Virus record (IMG/VR): IMGVR_UViG_3300044719_000048
Coordinates: 32,001-96,000 of that record
From: a virus
Taxonomy: Duplodnaviria > Caudoviricetes
Direction: 5' to 3' (one strand)
DNA length: 64,000 nt
The notes beneath the pieces are model-generated. The model ran no database searches. It was given only the letters and a program-made list of their open reading frames with translations, and was not told the origin of the DNA. Below, one piece after another: positions 3,578 through 64,000 of this stretch; within the stretch, counting starts at the first letter, position 1; the number at the start of each line of letters is the position of its first letter. The translations under genes and the position numbers were made by a program.

Positions 3578-3625
3578 TTTCACACTTTCGCAATTTAATG
3601 GGGAAACGTTTTAGACGGAGTACCC

Positions 3626-6600: not shown

Positions 6601-6642
6601 AAAAAAGAAAGGGCGGTGGATCATTGCGGTCCACCGCCCTTT
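6601..6642. terminator. Bidirectional intrinsic terminator
   Basis: AAAGGGCGGTGGA...TCCACCGCCCTTT hairpin with A and T tracts, between convergent genes. Confidence 0.85.
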
Positions 6643-6647
6643 GTCCG

Positions 6648-6881
6648 TTAGTCACTGATTGCTTTCGCTGTAGTGAAAGCGAATTGGGCGATACTCAGTC
6701 GCACCTGAGCGGTGGTCAATCCGCACATGATACGTACCAACTCGTCTGACCCCTGCTTATGATAGTACCGCTGCGGTCCAACTACCGGGTCTGTCATTGC
6801 ACGCCTCCGCAGCTCGTAGACCCGTTTCTTCAGCAGCGATAGCTGTGCGATCATCACAGCGATCTCTTCCTCATAGCTCAT
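6648..6881 (-). CDS. Hypothetical early protein
   Basis: GAGGTG RBS; last gene of the small-gene island. Confidence 0.65.
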   Translation of the reverse strand: MSYEEEIAVMIAQLSLLKKRVYELRRRAMTDPVVGPQRYYHKQGSDELVRIMCGLTTAQVRLSIAQFAFTTAKAISD

Positions 6882-48252: not shown

Positions 48253-48417
48253 TTACCCCACGAAGATCTTGCCGGCCTCTGCTGCCTTAAAGCGCTCATT
48301 CCTTCGGTTCTCAGCCAAGGAGGCCATGAACTGAATCTCATAGAGTGGCGTGGAATCCGGCAAGTGGATATGATATTCAGCAGCAATCAGTCCGTGCATC
48401 TCCAGATAGGACTTCAT
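48253..48417 (-). CDS. Small gp51-like chaperone ORF (own ATG, or the C-terminal part of a -1 frameshift product)
   Basis: ATGA overlap with the upstream stop; in the -1 frame after TTTTTTC. Confidence 0.6.
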   Translation of the reverse strand: MKSYLEMHGLIAAEYHIHLPDSTPLYEIQFMASLAENRRNERFKAAEAGKIFVG

Positions 48418-49448
48418 GCTGCCAATGGGAAAAAACTGTGGGCCTCGATCTCCAGTTCGTCGGTGTGAATGTGTCCGCACGTCTTGCAGGTCCACTTGAG
48501 GGACTCGACCACGCCGTAGTCGGAAATCGCTTTCTCATAACGGGCGATGGTAGCAATGTCGTCGCCGCTCATGTCGTCCACCAGCTGCATGCGCTCTTGC
48601 AGGGATGCATTCCGGTCAACGAGCTGAATCGAGGCTGCGGTGCGCGCAGTGAAACGGTCGATGTTTTCGTTCATGGTGATCTCCAGAACGTCTTTCATCA
48701 GAATCGGCACGAGCTTGATTCCCTGATAATCCAACGCGAATTCCTCCGGGTTCGGAAGCACCTTCAGCTGCTTGGTCTTCAGCGTGGCGCTGGTGATGAG
48801 CGTTGCGTACTTCAGCGTGTCGGGTTCAACCTTCACCAGCTTGCCATCGACTGGACGACCGTTGTTCACCCAGTCATGGTGAACCTTGGAGCGGCACATC
48901 GTCTGATGCGTGAAGCCATGCTTGAGGAACGAATGCATACGCAGCCAATACAGACAGGCGTAGTAATCGGGAAGCGTGAGCTCGAAGGCTAGGCCCGTAG
49001 GATACGCCGCGTTGGAGATGACCGAGGACACGACCTCGATCATGTGCAGCATGGACTGCTCCTCGCGAGCACGGTGCAGCTTGGCGAAGTGCCGTCCCTT
49101 GAACGGTCGAATGTACAGGTCCTTGAACTGGTCGTAGACCAGAAAGTTGGAAGGCAGAGCGAACGATACGGCCTCGGCTTCCGAGTTGGGCGTCACATGC
49201 ACATACGGCTGCGGTTCAGGAATGGGTGCTGCCATTGGTTGCGGCATCTGCGGACGACCTTGCGGAGCCACTGTACCTTGAGTGGTGAGCGAGATGCCGG
49301 CTGCTGCAACCTTGGGCTGACTAGCCGCCTGCTGGGCCTTCACATGAGGGTGATGCGGATTGTGAACCGTGCCGGGCTTGACGCGGTTTTCCATTTGCTG
49401 CCGTTTTTCTGCCGGGAAGGGTACGAATTGTTCTGAGGAGTTTTCCAT
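48414..49448 (-). CDS. Baseplate hub/tail assembly chaperone (T4 gp26-like)
   Basis: LPSN..IRPF; C-terminal CKTCGH..SFF; upstream of the tape measure-like gene. Confidence 0.7.
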   Translation of the reverse strand: MENSSEQFVPFPAEKRQQMENRVKPGTVHNPHHPHVKAQQAASQPKVAAAGISLTTQGTVAPQGRPQMPQPMAAPIPEPQPYVHVTPNSEAEAVSFALPSNFLVYDQFKDLYIRPFKGRHFAKLHRAREEQSMLHMIEVVSSVISNAAYPTGLAFELTLPDYYACLYWLRMHSFLKHGFTHQTMCRSKVHHDWVNNGRPVDGKLVKVEPDTLKYATLITSATLKTKQLKVLPNPEEFALDYQGIKLVPILMKDVLEITMNENIDRFTARTAASIQLVDRNASLQERMQLVDDMSGDDIATIARYEKAISDYGVVESLKWTCKTCGHIHTDELEIEAHSFFPLAA

Positions 49449-49458
49449 TTATGGCCTC

Positions 49459-50442
49459 TTAGAATAGTTGTTTGATTGCGGACCTAGCCGTGTTCCTGAC
49501 GAGGTCACGTGCGCTGCCTTTGAGTGCGGAGAGAAGTGCTTGTCCTGAAAGATTGCTATTCACCTTGAAGGCTGTCATGAAGACATCGCCTGCGCTGAAG
49601 TTCACGCTGTAGGTCAGCCTCGTCGAGCTTTGACTATCCAGCTGTATCTGATCGAGGTTGGTGGGCCAGCACTCGATGTACTCCAACATCAGAATCACTG
49701 CCTTGGACTGGTCAACGAGATAGATGCGGATGGGCTTCCAGTAATCGGAAGGACGCCCAAAGCCTCCACCCACCGTAACCGCACCAGACCCGAAGGGCGC
49801 CAGAATTGCGCCGTCCCAGGACATCAGGTAGTTCAATGACTTGTTCTCAACGTCTGCGTAGAAGTTCAGACGCAGGTTGTCTACGTTGTATGTACCGGCA
49901 ACCTTTCGGTTACGGCCAGAGCCATAGATCTGACGTACCTCATAGGTACGGAATGACGGAGCGGCTTCTTCGACATAGCTCCAGTCGAGGTTCGCAGGCG
50001 CACCGTCAATAGGCGTGACAGTAGGGAGCTCGCAGTACCACTGGAAACTCATCATGGGGTCGGCGCGACCTAATGCACCCTGCAAGGTATTTACGATGCC
50101 ATTACTAGAGCCGAAGACACCGCCACTAGAGGACAGCCCGAATGCCGCACCGAACTGGCCGAGTACGTCCTGCGGCCCTTTGGCAAGAGTCGTTAAGGCA
50201 CCGCTGAAATCTCCAGTGGCTGCTTGGGCTGCTGCCGCGCGAATGTCGTTCACTCCGACGTTGAGCGCACTGGAGACAGCTCCACGGACGTCTGCGGCAC
50301 CAGCCTGCATTATCGACTTGGGTATGTGCAGGACTTCCGTTGCAGTGGCTTGGATCGCCGTTGACACCTGCCTGTTGACCTCTTTCGCCAACACGGAGCC
50401 CGCCTGCAGCTTCTTTCCTAATATATCATTGAGAGATGGCAT
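49459..50442 (-). CDS. Tail-tube-fold baseplate junction protein (gp48/gp54-like)
   Basis: C-terminal tube-like IECWPTNL..YSVNFS. Confidence 0.65.
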   Translation of the reverse strand: MPSLNDILGKKLQAGSVLAKEVNRQVSTAIQATATEVLHIPKSIMQAGAADVRGAVSSALNVGVNDIRAAAAQAATGDFSGALTTLAKGPQDVLGQFGAAFGLSSSGGVFGSSNGIVNTLQGALGRADPMMSFQWYCELPTVTPIDGAPANLDWSYVEEAAPSFRTYEVRQIYGSGRNRKVAGTYNVDNLRLNFYADVENKSLNYLMSWDGAILAPFGSGAVTVGGGFGRPSDYWKPIRIYLVDQSKAVILMLEYIECWPTNLDQIQLDSQSSTRLTYSVNFSAGDVFMTAFKVNSNLSGQALLSALKGSARDLVRNTARSAIKQLF

Positions 50443-50455
50443 GATGGGTCCTCAA

Positions 50456-50627
50456 AGGGAACCCACGAGAATAGCTGGAGAGGGATCCTCATGAGCCAGC
50501 TACGCTCATGGGTTAAAAAAGAGAGAACGGCTATTCGTGGCCTACAGCCTAGCCGTTCTCTAAACGCGGAGACTGCACCCTTCCGCGAGTCGGCTGCAAG
50601 CAACCCAGCTCCGCGTGTAGGCACAAC
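50456..50627 (-). ncRNA. Candidate structured RNA / regulatory leader
   Basis: Three stem domains, a U-tract and a potential pseudoknot directly after the AATTTCAT promoter. Confidence 0.6.
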
Positions 50628-50636
50628 ATGAAATTG

Positions 50637-51080
50637 TCATCCCCAGAGCCATACGATGTTGGCTGGAGGTCCTCCCGGATACCAGGCCGGCATAGGTCGG
50701 TTGAGATCCAGAGTAGGGCTGATGTTGCGCCCTTGTGGTGCCAGATAGAAGCCTGAATGCTCGTCGGTGTTCAGGTTGGGGCTCTTCAATCGAACCTGCA
50801 GATCGCGCGTCACCACTTCTCTTGCGTGGTCAGGCGCAACCAGCAAGTCTGGACCAGTCTGATACAGCACCCACAGAGTGGCCAGCTCCTTGCTAGGAGC
50901 CCGATTGACGCCCAGAGTTTGAAGTGCGCTCTCCAGCTTGGGCTCATTACCTTCGTAGTAGACACTGAGCTCTCGTGTGGATGGCTGATTCTGAATGGCG
51001 ATGACATCACGAATGATCTGACCTTCGACTTGGGACGTGAAGTGATCCCACATCAGACCTATGACATAGGGAGCTCTCAT
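50637..51080 (-). CDS. Hypothetical protein
   Basis: Last gene of the portal unit. Confidence 0.65.
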   Translation of the reverse strand: MRAPYVIGLMWDHFTSQVEGQIIRDVIAIQNQPSTRELSVYYEGNEPKLESALQTLGVNRAPSKELATLWVLYQTGPDLLVAPDHAREVVTRDLQVRLKSPNLNTDEHSGFYLAPQGRNISPTLDLNRPMPAWYPGGPPANIVWLWG

Positions 51081-51081
51081 A

Positions 51082-51333
51082 CTATTTCCCCTTCGCTATG
51101 CCCTTGGCGATCTTCTTTGCCAACGGCAGGTCCAACGTCATGACCCTCGTTGGGTCGCCTTGGAAGATCATGCGGATCTGCTTCCCGTTCGACGACTTGC
51201 GGACACCGAAGCGCTGACCCTTCTCCAGAGTGCGAGTGATGCCCCGGAAAGGAATTTCCAGAGGCGGCCCTCCGTACTTGAAGAAATCATATTCCTCTTC
51301 GCCCTTAACGCGGGCTACCAAGCATGAGTACAT
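51082..51333 (-). CDS. Hypothetical protein
   Basis: Follows the portal gene. Confidence 0.65.
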   Translation of the reverse strand: MYSCLVARVKGEEEYDFFKYGGPPLEIPFRGITRTLEKGQRFGVRKSSNGKQIRMIFQGDPTRVMTLDLPLAKKIAKGIAKGK

Positions 51334-51334
51334 A

Positions 51335-53182
51335 TCAGGGCTCCAGTCGTGATTGTCCGAACTTCAGTTGATTGGTCTTGGCGAGTTGCAAGCGGTAGTG
51401 GGCGTCGGTCTGAGCACGCGCGCTGATTTTCGCGATCTGTGCGTTCTGATCACGCGTCTTCAATCGCGAATTGTAGACGTATTGCTTCTTGCCGGTCTTG
51501 CCGATGGTGTAGTCTTGAGGATCGCCCCAGTCGCGTCCCAAGATGGACCGCTTGCCCGTCACGCCCTTGCGCATAGACTGAGCGGTGGGCACACGTTGAA
51601 CGCCCTTGACCTTTGCGTACTCCTCGTTGCCGACCTCTTCCTCACCTTCGTGCGACGTATCCTTGCCGGTGTATTTCGCCAGCAGGCTGCGCAGTTCCTT
51701 GTCTTCTTTGAGGTCTTTCAGCAGCGTGTCCTTGTCGAGACCGGCCGCCGCCATCCACTGCTTCAGCGGAATGGGCACACCCTTCTCGGAGACCTGCTCC
51801 AGCATGTCGAACGTCGACTCCTCGCCCTTGGCTTCTAGCGACTTGTGCCACATCAACTTGGGAATCAGCAGGTTGGCTTTGTTGTTCGAGTGCATCAGGA
51901 ACTTGGAGATCTGGCCGTTCCGCAGCTTGGCTTCGGCAGGGGTACCCGGCTTGTACAGCCCGTTGGCCACTGCGATCAAGGGGAACAGCGTCGAATAGAA
52001 GATCGCGTTCGTCATGTGGTTACGATACACGTTCTGCGATTCGAGGAACAGCGAATACGCCGACTCCATTGCAGCATACGAAGTCTCACCTGACAGAAAG
52101 GACTCGGAGACGCCTAGTGCCCGCAGCTTGTAGGGGATCATCTGATCGCCCATGTCGGTCCACTTCCAGAAGTCACCACCGGGGCGAATGTCGGTCAGTT
52201 GAACAGCGTTGCGTGTCGAGACCCATCCACCGAGAGGATCGAACTCAGCTTGCTGGAACTGCGAGACCAGCGCTTCGAGCTCTTCACCCGTAGGCGTCCA
52301 CACATCGTCGCCTGCCGTGATGTGCGTTGTCGCCCGCTGCCGACGTGAGGCCTCGACCAACGTGCCTCGGAACATCGTCTTCTCGATCAGGTACATCGGA
52401 AGCAAGCGATGCAAATACGACACGTAAGCCCTGTCAGTCAGCGTCTTCCGAGCCACGAACAGCGTAGAGATCGGACTCAGCGTGTACTGGCCTTGGTTCA
52501 TCAGCTGTACGAACTCGGGAGGCAGCGAATGCACGTACTCGCGAGCATACGGCGAATCCGAGCCCAGCAGATTGACTGTCTGGCTCGAAGTCTGCACGTT
52601 GATCTGCGGCATCATGTTGAAGAACGAACCGGGGATGATCGAGCACTGGAGCGCATCGTGCACCAGAGTGTCCACGAACCGCTTGGTTCTCGGATCGAAG
52701 ATCAGCGACCCCGCGAAGAACCCGTCAGCCAGATAGGCCGTCGAGATGTGCGGAAGCATACGCTGGATGTTCAGCTGCTCGATGGCGTCATTGTAGATCT
52801 GAATCGACTTCTCGTCGGCGCCGCGCAGATCGAAGTCTGAGAATGGAAACGTCGACTGCAGGTCAACCACCGTACCGCCAACGTTGTCATTCAGGTAGAT
52901 GTCCCGGTAGAACAGAGCCAGCTGCGCAGATTGGCTGTACATCGGCTCTGCTGGAATCAGGCCGGTGAAGAAGTACTGGTATTGGCTATTCCAGAACGAG
53001 TTCATCGACACGGAGTTGCCTCCGCCAGAAACACCCAGATTGCCACCTAGTGCAGCGGTGACCTTCGTTGAGGCTTCGCTGTAAGAACGCTTTGAAGCGT
53101 ACGCCGAGACGGCAGCAGGTGCCCCCATCTCGGTCTTGATGCGCCCGTTGTTGACGCCCGTAATACGGTTTTTCGGGAACAT
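51335..53182 (-). CDS. Portal protein (putative)
   Basis: 615 aa; FYRDIY..VDLQSTFPFSD; ALGVSESFLSGETSYA; near the terminase. Confidence 0.75.
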   Translation of the reverse strand: MFPKNRITGVNNGRIKTEMGAPAAVSAYASKRSYSEASTKVTAALGGNLGVSGGGNSVSMNSFWNSQYQYFFTGLIPAEPMYSQSAQLALFYRDIYLNDNVGGTVVDLQSTFPFSDFDLRGADEKSIQIYNDAIEQLNIQRMLPHISTAYLADGFFAGSLIFDPRTKRFVDTLVHDALQCSIIPGSFFNMMPQINVQTSSQTVNLLGSDSPYAREYVHSLPPEFVQLMNQGQYTLSPISTLFVARKTLTDRAYVSYLHRLLPMYLIEKTMFRGTLVEASRRQRATTHITAGDDVWTPTGEELEALVSQFQQAEFDPLGGWVSTRNAVQLTDIRPGGDFWKWTDMGDQMIPYKLRALGVSESFLSGETSYAAMESAYSLFLESQNVYRNHMTNAIFYSTLFPLIAVANGLYKPGTPAEAKLRNGQISKFLMHSNNKANLLIPKLMWHKSLEAKGEESTFDMLEQVSEKGVPIPLKQWMAAAGLDKDTLLKDLKEDKELRSLLAKYTGKDTSHEGEEEVGNEEYAKVKGVQRVPTAQSMRKGVTGKRSILGRDWGDPQDYTIGKTGKKQYVYNSRLKTRDQNAQIAKISARAQTDAHYRLQLAKTNQLKFGQSRLEP

Positions 53183-63301: not shown

Positions 63302-64000
63302 ACACGAACTCCTCTAATAGACGACGATGCTTCAACGAGACGTACTGCGGTATGTGCATGGAGGTCCGAACCAGTCCTTCGGGGTCCACCTGTTGGCTGA
63401 TGTACGCAACGTGCTGCCACATCTCAGCTGACTGGTCAGGCATAACCATACCAAGCAGGTCATGCACTGCGTCACCGTGCTCTTCGATAAGGCCTTCGTA
63501 CGACGAGTCCTGATGGCCTTCTGCCAGTTTGGCTACTTCCGACTTGGCCGACTTGAACCAAGATTGCATGAATGTCGTGATGACTCCGTGCCGTGAGTCG
63601 CAGCGGTCGATGGCTCGGGAGACAACCAACAGGTAGATCTGCACCACGTCGTCCAGCTTCACCACGTAGTTGTAGTCCCGGTAGGTGGCTTGAGCCTGCA
63701 AGAGGGCCATGCGCGTGTACTTCTCGACGATCTGCTCTTTCCACTTACGGGCCTTCGCCGACCAGTACTCGACCTCCATGATCGCGGCGTAGAGTTCACC
63801 GCCTTCGCGCATGCCTATTGCGCGCTCTATCTGCCAGCACAGGCTTCGGGTGCGGACAGTCAGCAGGGCGCTCTCGTGCATTTTCCTGTAGTCCTTGAGG
63901 CGGTTGAGGAAGAACGAGATGAAGCCAAACAGCAGACCGCGGTTGATGTGCATGTCCTTGGCGAGGTCCACCAGCTTGGTATCTTCGGCACGTAGACAGT
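63285..64000 (-). CDS. Phage RNA polymerase sigma-like factor (5'-truncated)
   Basis: Region-2-like IVEKYTRMA..LDDVVQIYLLVVSRAIDRCDSRHGVITTFMQSWFK; frame open to the window edge. Confidence 0.65.
   Translation of the reverse strand, partial: CLRAEDTKLVDLAKDMHINRGLLFGFISFFLNRLKDYRKMHESALLTVRTRSLCWQIERAIGMREGGELYAAIMEVEYWSAKARKWKEQIVEKYTRMALLQAQATYRDYNYVVKLDDVVQIYLLVVSRAIDRCDSRHGVITTFMQSWFKSAKSEVAKLAEGHQDSSYEGLIEEHGDAVHDLLGMVMPDQSAEMWQHVAYISQQVDPEGLVRTSMHIPQYVSLKHRRLLEEFVCEDPA

Follow-up and report, generated by a model that had tools for sequence, protein, structure and literature searches.

The 194-nt gap that separates the portal gene cluster from the tail-initiation operon in a 189.5-kb genome of an uncultured phage from IMG/VR (positions 50443-50636, minus strand) holds, with good support, a conserved structured non-coding RNA, situated in front of the tail-initiation genes. 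This conclusion follows from the combination of i) an overlapping open reading frame that is not conserved; ii) abundant covariation among homologous gaps; and iii) the absence of any Rfam match. Positions are given with respect to the window, i.e. the complete stretch of 64,000 nucleotides of this genome that was analyzed. As to the role of the RNA, we give somewhat better than even chances to a cis-acting leader or attenuator of ~185 nt, in which a terminator limits entry into the tail-initiation operon, and a bistable domain, together with a hairpin over the Shine-Dalgarno (SD) sequence, sets the translation of the first gene. The evidence, and the other explanations that it bears on, are described in the following.

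All genes around the gap lie on the minus strand. The genes upstream encode the portal protein (51335-53182) and a KMPT-N-like protein of 83 aa (51082-51333), both recognized through PHROGs/Pfam matches, and, as the last member of the portal cluster, a protein of 147 aa taken from the ORF list (50637-51080), for which no family or useful match was found in PHROGs, Pfam or the protein atlas. The tail-initiation operon starts with a gene encoding a 327-aa protein that resembles a 'tail tube initiator' (49459-50442; PF23849, Phage_TTP_2; PHROGs tail tube, E 1e-14) and is followed by a gene encoding a baseplate-hub-like protein of 344 aa (48414-49448; PHROGs baseplate hub). The PF23849 domain was recovered on all homologues and the gene order around the gap was the same in all relatives. 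Several observations on the annotation of this locus were made in passing. In close relatives, GIY-YIG (PF22945) homing-endonuclease-like genes were found at three different intergenic places near the portal/tail-initiator locus (L020, 81-1097; L021, 1328-2287; L022, 4833-5741), and the window has none at these places. Public records probably give a wrong start for the tail-tube-initiator gene: in BcepSaruman the annotated CDS begins ~340 nt within the tblastn match (L035, 6001-6340), in BcepSauron the stretch is divided into two CDS (L002, 3207-3944), and ORF208 of phiRSL1 has been given a GTG start that precedes the likely ATG by ~30 nt (L037, 5923; MPFVKDA...).

Homologous gaps were sampled by a protein search with the downstream gene, such that graded relatives (86% to <50% identity) were obtained, and the corresponding contigs were retrieved from metagenomes. 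The procedure yielded 16 further distinct gaps (17 with the one in the window), with a flanking tail protein that is 52-86% identical, and each of the 17 sits between the gene for the 147-aa protein and the tail-tube-initiator gene. The length from the CAATTT of a motif at the 5' edge (see below) to the ATG is 193-203 nt in 16 of the 17, namely in the window, with 197 nt, and in 15 of the 16 gaps that were recovered, the exception being L029, which carries two insertions. The leader DNA is 73-93% identical to that of the window, whereas 300 nt of either flanking gene reach just 53-76%. The 68-aa ORF (50418-50624), whose conservation the initial annotation had listed as an argument against a structured RNA, is uninterrupted in just two sequences, the window and the distant relative L034; the other 15 homologues, including the closest one, have stops in every frame of both strands and show frequent indels of 1-2 nt. 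The higher DNA identity of the leader as compared to its flanks, in the absence of a conserved frame, thus indicates that the stretch is under strong selection but does not code.

A protein product of the gap, whether from the 68-aa frame or from a mini-ORF of six codons in domain 3 (AUG AGC GUA GCU GGC UCA UGA), is therefore barely credible. The first frame is open in the window and the second is found in 15 of the 17 sequences, but the 68-aa frame is interrupted in most homologues as described above and its product belongs to no protein family (PHROGs, Pfam), while the mini-ORF lacks an SD and its start has changed to GUG in L013 and to ACG in L034, in step with the partner in the RNA pairing. 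A repeated or mobile element was rejected as well, as the element is single-copy in the genome.

The predicted fold of the minus strand of the gap (194 nt) has an energy of -82.6 kcal/mol, against -62.6 ± 4.6 kcal/mol for 200 dinucleotide shuffles, none of which is as good (z -4.35); the plus strand folds more weakly (z -3.53). Many conserved G-U pairs are present, and only on the gene strand, which argues for an RNA of minus polarity rather than for DNA or an antisense RNA and agrees with the strand preference that had been read from the G-U pairs in the window initially. The same data bear on the explanation that the inverted repeats act as DNA, e.g. as a protein-binding site, as a target for recombination or a homing endonuclease, or as a signal for replication or packaging. 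We consider this very improbable. The repeats do fold on the plus strand too and GIY-YIG endonuclease genes have landed around the locus in relatives, but in a cruciform, or on the opposite strand, the conserved G-U pairs would turn into A-C mismatches, the covariation of the pseudoknot described below has no rationale at the DNA level, the U run and the pairing with the SD are strand-specific, and the element occurs as a single copy.

Every helix that had been named in the initial annotation was found on the minus strand at the place assigned to it. We built two covariance models to describe the fold: R1 comprises the 5' arm, domain 1 and the terminator, with a seed of the 11 sequences that were easily aligned, and R2 runs from domain 3 through the ATG. 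Five sequences that had been kept out of the R1 seed still score 60-75 bits. In the R1 alignment, 96% of the cells of the 27 pairs in domain 1 and the terminator are paired and 18 of these pairs have changed on both sides; none of 500 shuffles reaches any of these measures and sliding the partner by 1-3 columns reduces the paired fraction to 40-52%. Covariation, the lack of which had also been considered an argument against the RNA, is therefore abundant among the homologues, be it that the set comprises only 16-17 sequences and that their relatedness, together with the fitting of the alignments to the model, makes the counts lean towards structure. The E-values of the covariance models stem from a shortened calibration and are rough. 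A weak R1 match elsewhere in the window (6601-6658, minus strand; 19 bits, E 0.002) is probably another terminator-type hairpin.

Domain 1 (50564-50616) contains 15 pairs, with 96-97% of the cells paired and 11 pairs changed on both sides. It is closed by the helix ACGCGGAG (50616-50609) with CTCCGCGT (50571-50564), within which the P1 stem pairs 50609-50615 with 50565-50571, and continues with P1a (CUG, 50606-50608, with CAG, 50573-50575), an apical hairpin P2 (50601-50605 with 50592-50596) and a bulge of 16 nt, GACUCGCGGAAGGGUG (50576-50591), whose 14-nt core CUCGCGGAAGGGUG is nearly invariant. This architecture was predicted in nine of the 17 single-sequence folds. The domain had been proposed to be a three-way junction: the long stem (P1 and P1a), P2 and the bulge were recovered, and the third helix would consist of 3-4 bp between invariant bases, so that the alignment speaks neither for nor against it. 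Covariation in 11 of 15 pairs around a nearly invariant core that is unpaired is a combination expected of riboswitch-type aptamers, and domain 1 displays it. The invariant purine run GGAAGGG of the bulge (50576-50591) is in all sequences complementary, mostly via G-U, to the tail UCUUUUU of the terminator (50515-50522); this is a complementarity of low information, but such a pairing could fold back the 3' end of the terminated transcript.

Domain 2 (50515-50561) is a hairpin that resembles an intrinsic terminator and is part of the minimum free energy (MFE) fold of all 17 homologues. Its 12-bp stem, AGAGAACGGCTA (50561-50550) with TAGCCGTTCTCT (50533-50522), is 95% paired with seven of the 12 pairs changed on both sides, and directly precedes, on the transcribed strand, a C and a run of six U (50520-50515), of which 4-6 U are kept in every homologue. 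The terminator-like character that was initially ascribed to domain 2 was thereby corroborated. The hairpin was missed in a simple terminator scan because the tool takes loops of 3-8 nt and the loop of domain 2 has 16 nt. Within this loop, UGUAGGC (50540-50546) is complementary to GCCUACA near the 5' end (50616-50622). The complementarity, noted before in the window as a pseudoknot of 7 bp, is kept in 15 of 16 sequences and the covariation bears it out: L034 has swapped both arms (CACCUGC/GCAGGUG), L026 shows a compensatory exchange of C-G to U-A, and the arms of L003, L027 and L028 are G-U compatible. Column-wise, 89.6% of the cells are paired, with two sequences being misaligned there. The order of the segments (50616-50622, 50550-50561, 50540-50546 and 50522-50533, with the first pairing to the third and the second to the fourth) and the loops of ~60, 3 and 6 nt are those of an H-type pseudoknot, and judged by this order the RNA would adopt an H-type topology with domain 1 in the first loop.

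The pseudoknot is predicted to stabilize the terminator rather than to compete with its stem. An unbiased scan for conserved complementarity recovered no conserved antiterminator pairing that could open the terminator stem, and added only low-information purine runs (GGAAGGG of the bulge and GAGGA of domain 3 and the SD) opposite UCUUUUU. As no antiterminator was found and the pseudoknot uses the loop and leaves the stem uncontested, there is no visible mechanism for conditional control of termination. A pairing of CCACGAATAGC in domain 2 with GCTATT..CGTGG in domain 3, which the initial annotation had put forward as an alternative, did not hold: it is strong only in the window and in L018 and L011, two of its closest relatives, and is at the level of shuffled sequences in more distant homologues.

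Domain 3 (50460-50514) is a long-range hairpin that is found in the MFE fold of 17 out of 17 sequences. It consists of an outer helix, AACCCATGAG (50514-50505) with CTCGTGGGTT (50469-50460), and an inner helix, GTAGCTGG (50503-50496) with CCAGCTAT (50478-50471), and holds a near-invariant loop core GCGUAGCUGGCUCAUGAGGAUC (50484-50505). The sequence is mostly invariant; 94% of the cells are paired and the three pairs that changed on both sides lie in the outer helix. An alternative, proximal hairpin can be formed by CAUGAGC (50504-50510) and GCUCAUG (50490-50496), for which 99% of the cells are paired (15-62% in slid controls) and two pairs have changed on both sides (UA/UG/CG and AU/GU/UG/GC). 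The 5' arm CAUGAGC thus covaries with two mutually exclusive partners, the nearby GCUCAUG and the distal CUCGUGG; a U in column 8, for instance, faces G in the proximal and A in the distal pairing. In stability, the long-range fold has an advantage of 3-12 kcal/mol over the proximal hairpin. To judge from these pairings, the bistable part of the leader would be located within domain 3 and not between domains 2 and 3.

A last hairpin is predicted between GGGUUC (50459-50464) and the GAGGACCC side (50446-50451). It covers the Shine-Dalgarno sequence GAGGA (50449-50453) and has GGGUU in common with the outer helix of domain 3. In relatives it reads GGUUCC/GGAACC or GGUCC/GGACC, and hairpins of unrelated sequence are found at the SD in phiRSL1 (UUCCUUCUUU/AAAGAAGGAA) and Motura (AGUCC/GGACU). 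In a column-wise count of covariation, sequences of the GGG and GG type fell into two registers, such that the count speaks neither for nor against this hairpin. Thermodynamic models of the two states of domain 3 gave no consistent difference in the accessibility of the Shine-Dalgarno sequence, and no link was found between domain 1 and domain 3.

The long, nearly perfect stem of domain 3 just upstream of the SD hairpin, in an intergenic region between two late operons, could also be read in terms of processing and stability: domain 3 (~19 stacked pairs) would be a site of the RNase III type as in the intergenic sites of T7, domain 2 would stabilize the 3' end of the upstream mRNA, and cleavage would separate the message of the portal genes from that of the tail genes and make the ribosome binding site (RBS) accessible. 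This explanation appears unlikely to us, as it accounts neither for the pseudoknot and the promoter motif, nor for the near-invariant sequences of loop and bulge, nor for the covariation of the alternative hairpin, and three relatives already end the upstream operon with a terminator of its own.

The 5' edge of the conserved element is formed by the promoter-like motif CAATTTCAT (50628-50636, minus strand), which contains an invariant CAATTT and has the form CAATTT[C/A]A[T/C] in each of the 17 homologous gaps, including those in which it shares bases with the stop codon of the upstream gene. The pattern AATTT[AC]AT has 11 copies in the 189.5-kb genome (besides window positions 3591, 27676, 42038, 53551 and 56389 there are six more). 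Eight other copies are located 11-33 nt before an SD and the ATG of a same-strand ORF of 112-1175 aa, among which is the ORF just upstream of the portal gene, and the copy before the tail-initiation leader is the only one that is followed by a long leader. Compared to a reversed control, CAATTTNAY was enriched in the genome of the window (9 versus 2), BcepSauron (13 versus 1), Motura (11 versus 1) and phiRSL1 (10 versus 0); no enrichment was seen in BCSR5. We infer that CAATTTNAY is a candidate for a promoter element in this group of phages, putatively for the late genes.

L028 (2252-2290), L003 (2256-2290) and L012 (1679-1712) have a separate terminator hairpin with a U run that follows the upstream stop codon and precedes the CAATTTCAT motif; no such hairpin is present in the window. 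The internal terminator therefore does not just mark where the portal operon ends. L021 carries a GIY-YIG gene, equipped with a CAATTTAAT motif of its own, as an insertion just upstream of the motif, and the leader block is intact. No other copy of the motif was found between the internal terminator and the ATG. The position of the motif, the upstream terminators and the lack of a later copy together imply that transcription of the tail operon most likely passes through the internal terminator.

The features can be connected as follows, within the reading of a cis-acting leader. Transcription would start a few bases after CAATTTCAT and the nascent RNA would fold into the long stem of domain 1, with its invariant bulge that is rich in purines. 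The terminator hairpin would follow and its loop would pair with the first bases of the RNA to create the H-type pseudoknot, the first loop of which contains domain 1. A majority of the polymerases would then not get past the U run, such that a compact RNA of ~110 nt would be released, and only the fraction that reads through would produce mRNA of the tail genes. On the read-through mRNA the small proximal hairpin of domain 3 would form first, to be replaced by the more stable long-range hairpin, which would compete for GGGUU with the hairpin that covers the RBS, so that RNA folding would also set the initiation of translation of the first tail gene. That the motif acts as promoter and the hairpin as terminator, and that read-through and translation are modulated, is what we infer from the sequence. 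Of the small RNA or attenuator-like switch that had been proposed initially, the structured RNA and the layout of promoter motif and terminator fit the data, and the pairing between domains 2 and 3 that was part of it is not conserved.

Phage phiRSL1 encodes no RNA polymerase and is sensitive to rifampicin (PMC5468394). A gene for the beta or beta' subunit of RNA polymerase was not found in the present contig either, which makes a host-type intrinsic terminator meaningful and plausible. A weak Sigma70_r2-like match, below the cut-off (15 bits), was seen within an ORF of 330 aa (window 63552-63674, minus strand).

The layout of the first ~110 nt is also that of a classic small RNA gene, with a promoter motif and an intrinsic terminator, and the 5' arm, domain 1 and the terminator could constitute a stable, trans-acting small RNA of the phage, the bulge serving as seed or as protein-binding site. 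Domain 3 and the SD hairpin would then be a separate and ordinary 5' UTR and an effect on the tail genes a by-product. The 5' end that is paired into the terminator loop would protect such an RNA, which would be compact with both ends tucked in; the single-stranded stretch of 14 nt is nearly invariant across phages in which the neighboring protein is only 52% identical, and R1 and R2 behave as separable modules in distant phages. On the other hand, no complement of at least 12 nt to the bulge or to the core of domain 3 occurs in the phage genome besides the element itself, the matches of 9-11 nt being at chance level (a search confined to the phage genome), the position before one operon is fixed in every relative, and in those relatives that have a separate upstream terminator no other promoter of the tail operon is visible, such that the internal terminator must be read through. 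We regard the small RNA as a possibility, albeit a doubtful one; the two readings are not exclusive and both can be true.

More speculatively, domain 1 and the pseudoknot could act as the sensor in a new class of RNA, either riboswitch-like or responsive to a protein, that gates read-through into the tail-initiation genes of phiRSL1-like jumbo phages, or the RNA of ~110 nt that is released with its ends protected could have a function of its own, as a cofactor of assembly or as a regulator of the host. In the first case, the onset of tail assembly would become dependent on a metabolite or on a structural or assembly protein of the phage. Sensing of the 7-deazaguanine pathway of the phage was weakened as an option, since QueC is found only in this genome and in Motura and is absent from BcepSauron, phiRSL1 and BCSR5.

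We then inspected how far the element extends beyond the 17 gaps. With Rfam 15 (4227 models), the region in the window gave three matches at E≤10, all at chance level (11.6-15.9 bits versus thresholds of 40-100), the whole window gave none at the gathering threshold, and seven homologous loci gave none in the leader at E≤1, in line with the initial impression that the RNA belongs to no known family. A degenerate pattern of 22 nt for the core of domain 3, run against IMG/VR and 185,579 genomes, returned no new members: the IMG/VR hits were two contigs that were already known, and two bacterial matches were rejected, with flanks that lack all other features and about nine matches being expected by chance. 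A literature search did not return a publication on the leader.

The nearest cultured relatives, as judged by protein (32-36% identity), are Motura (Achromobacter), BcepSauron, BcepSaruman and BCSR5 (Burkholderia), and phiRSL1 (Ralstonia); a tblastn search with the downstream gene matched BcepSauron (where it is named 'tail tube initiator'), Motura, phiRSL1 and BCSR5. All five have the same gene order and a gap of ~170-270 nt at the same place, and blastn against the cultured phages gave no DNA match to the element. The only significant covariance-model match among these phages was that of R2 in BCSR5, immediately before the ATG (24.7 bits, E 2e-4), where the architecture of domain 3 is kept while both helices and the proximal hairpin have been re-written. 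BcepSauron gave weak matches of both models at the syntenic place (13.8 and 8 bits), and has a GCCUG/CAGGC loop complementarity and GUGAGGAUC in common with the element. In phiRSL1 and Motura the sequence differs, but the motif, hairpins, the terminator with U run, a hairpin domain and the SD hairpin follow each other in the same order.

Several known systems share part of this organization. The late leader of phage lambda has a promoter (PR'), a '6S' transcript of 194 nt and a terminator (tR') that is read through only with the antiterminator Q. Like in lambda, the present leader would combine a late promoter with an intrinsic terminator within 100-200 nt, with a short RNA as default and late structural genes that need read-through. 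Unlike in lambda, it lies within the structural module and before the tail-initiation genes only, while the leaders behind some ten other copies of the motif are short and plain, and it has a conserved pseudoknotted fold with invariant unpaired bases; a Q-like protein or qut-like site was not identified here. Riboswitch and attenuator leaders in which an intrinsic terminator is combined with sequestration of the SD, among them pseudoknot classes (preQ1, SAM-II, fluoride), have in common with it the covarying 5' domain, invariant unpaired nucleotides, a pseudoknot, a terminator, the overlap between a bistable downstream domain and an SD hairpin, and the location in cis to one operon. The differences are that there is no Rfam match at E up to 10, that no antiterminator competes with the terminator stem, and that the partner of the pseudoknot lies in the terminator loop and would stabilize the terminator instead of excluding it.

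The put RNA of HK022 acts in cis and makes RNA polymerase resistant to terminators. By description only, it is similar as a promoter-proximal structured RNA with conserved bulged stems, immediately before a terminator in a phage operon; the present element differs by its pseudoknot and third domain. The translational operators of T4 (the leader pseudoknot of gene 32 and the regA and gene 43 operators) are short and come without a terminator or promoter-proximal domain. They resemble the leader in that a structure in a phage mRNA beside the RBS sets the dose of a protein that is needed in fixed amounts, whereas the leader has both a terminator and a promoter-proximal domain. Finally, the pRNA of phi29 (RF00044) is likewise a phage RNA of ~110-170 nt, with loop complementarities that are possibly intermolecular, and encoded beside the portal cluster, but there is no Rfam match, the fold is different, the present phage is an unrelated jumbo phage of the myovirus type and nothing indicates a role in packaging.

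To our knowledge, structured regulatory RNAs have rarely been documented in the late operons of phages, and we know of almost nothing on gene regulation in the jumbo phages related to phiRSL1 and the Sarumanviruses. The leader is more conserved than the surrounding proteins, carries a pseudoknot that is supported by covariation and built onto a terminator, and is located where the dose of the low-copy proteins of tail initiation (tube initiator, hub and tape measure) must be set. It yields a candidate late-gene promoter motif for this phage group and a defined RNA motif for the libraries of RNA families. As BCSR5, BcepSauron/BcepSaruman, phiRSL1 and Motura have the same layout, the predictions on how these phages may control their tail-initiation genes are directly testable in cultured pairs of phage and host.
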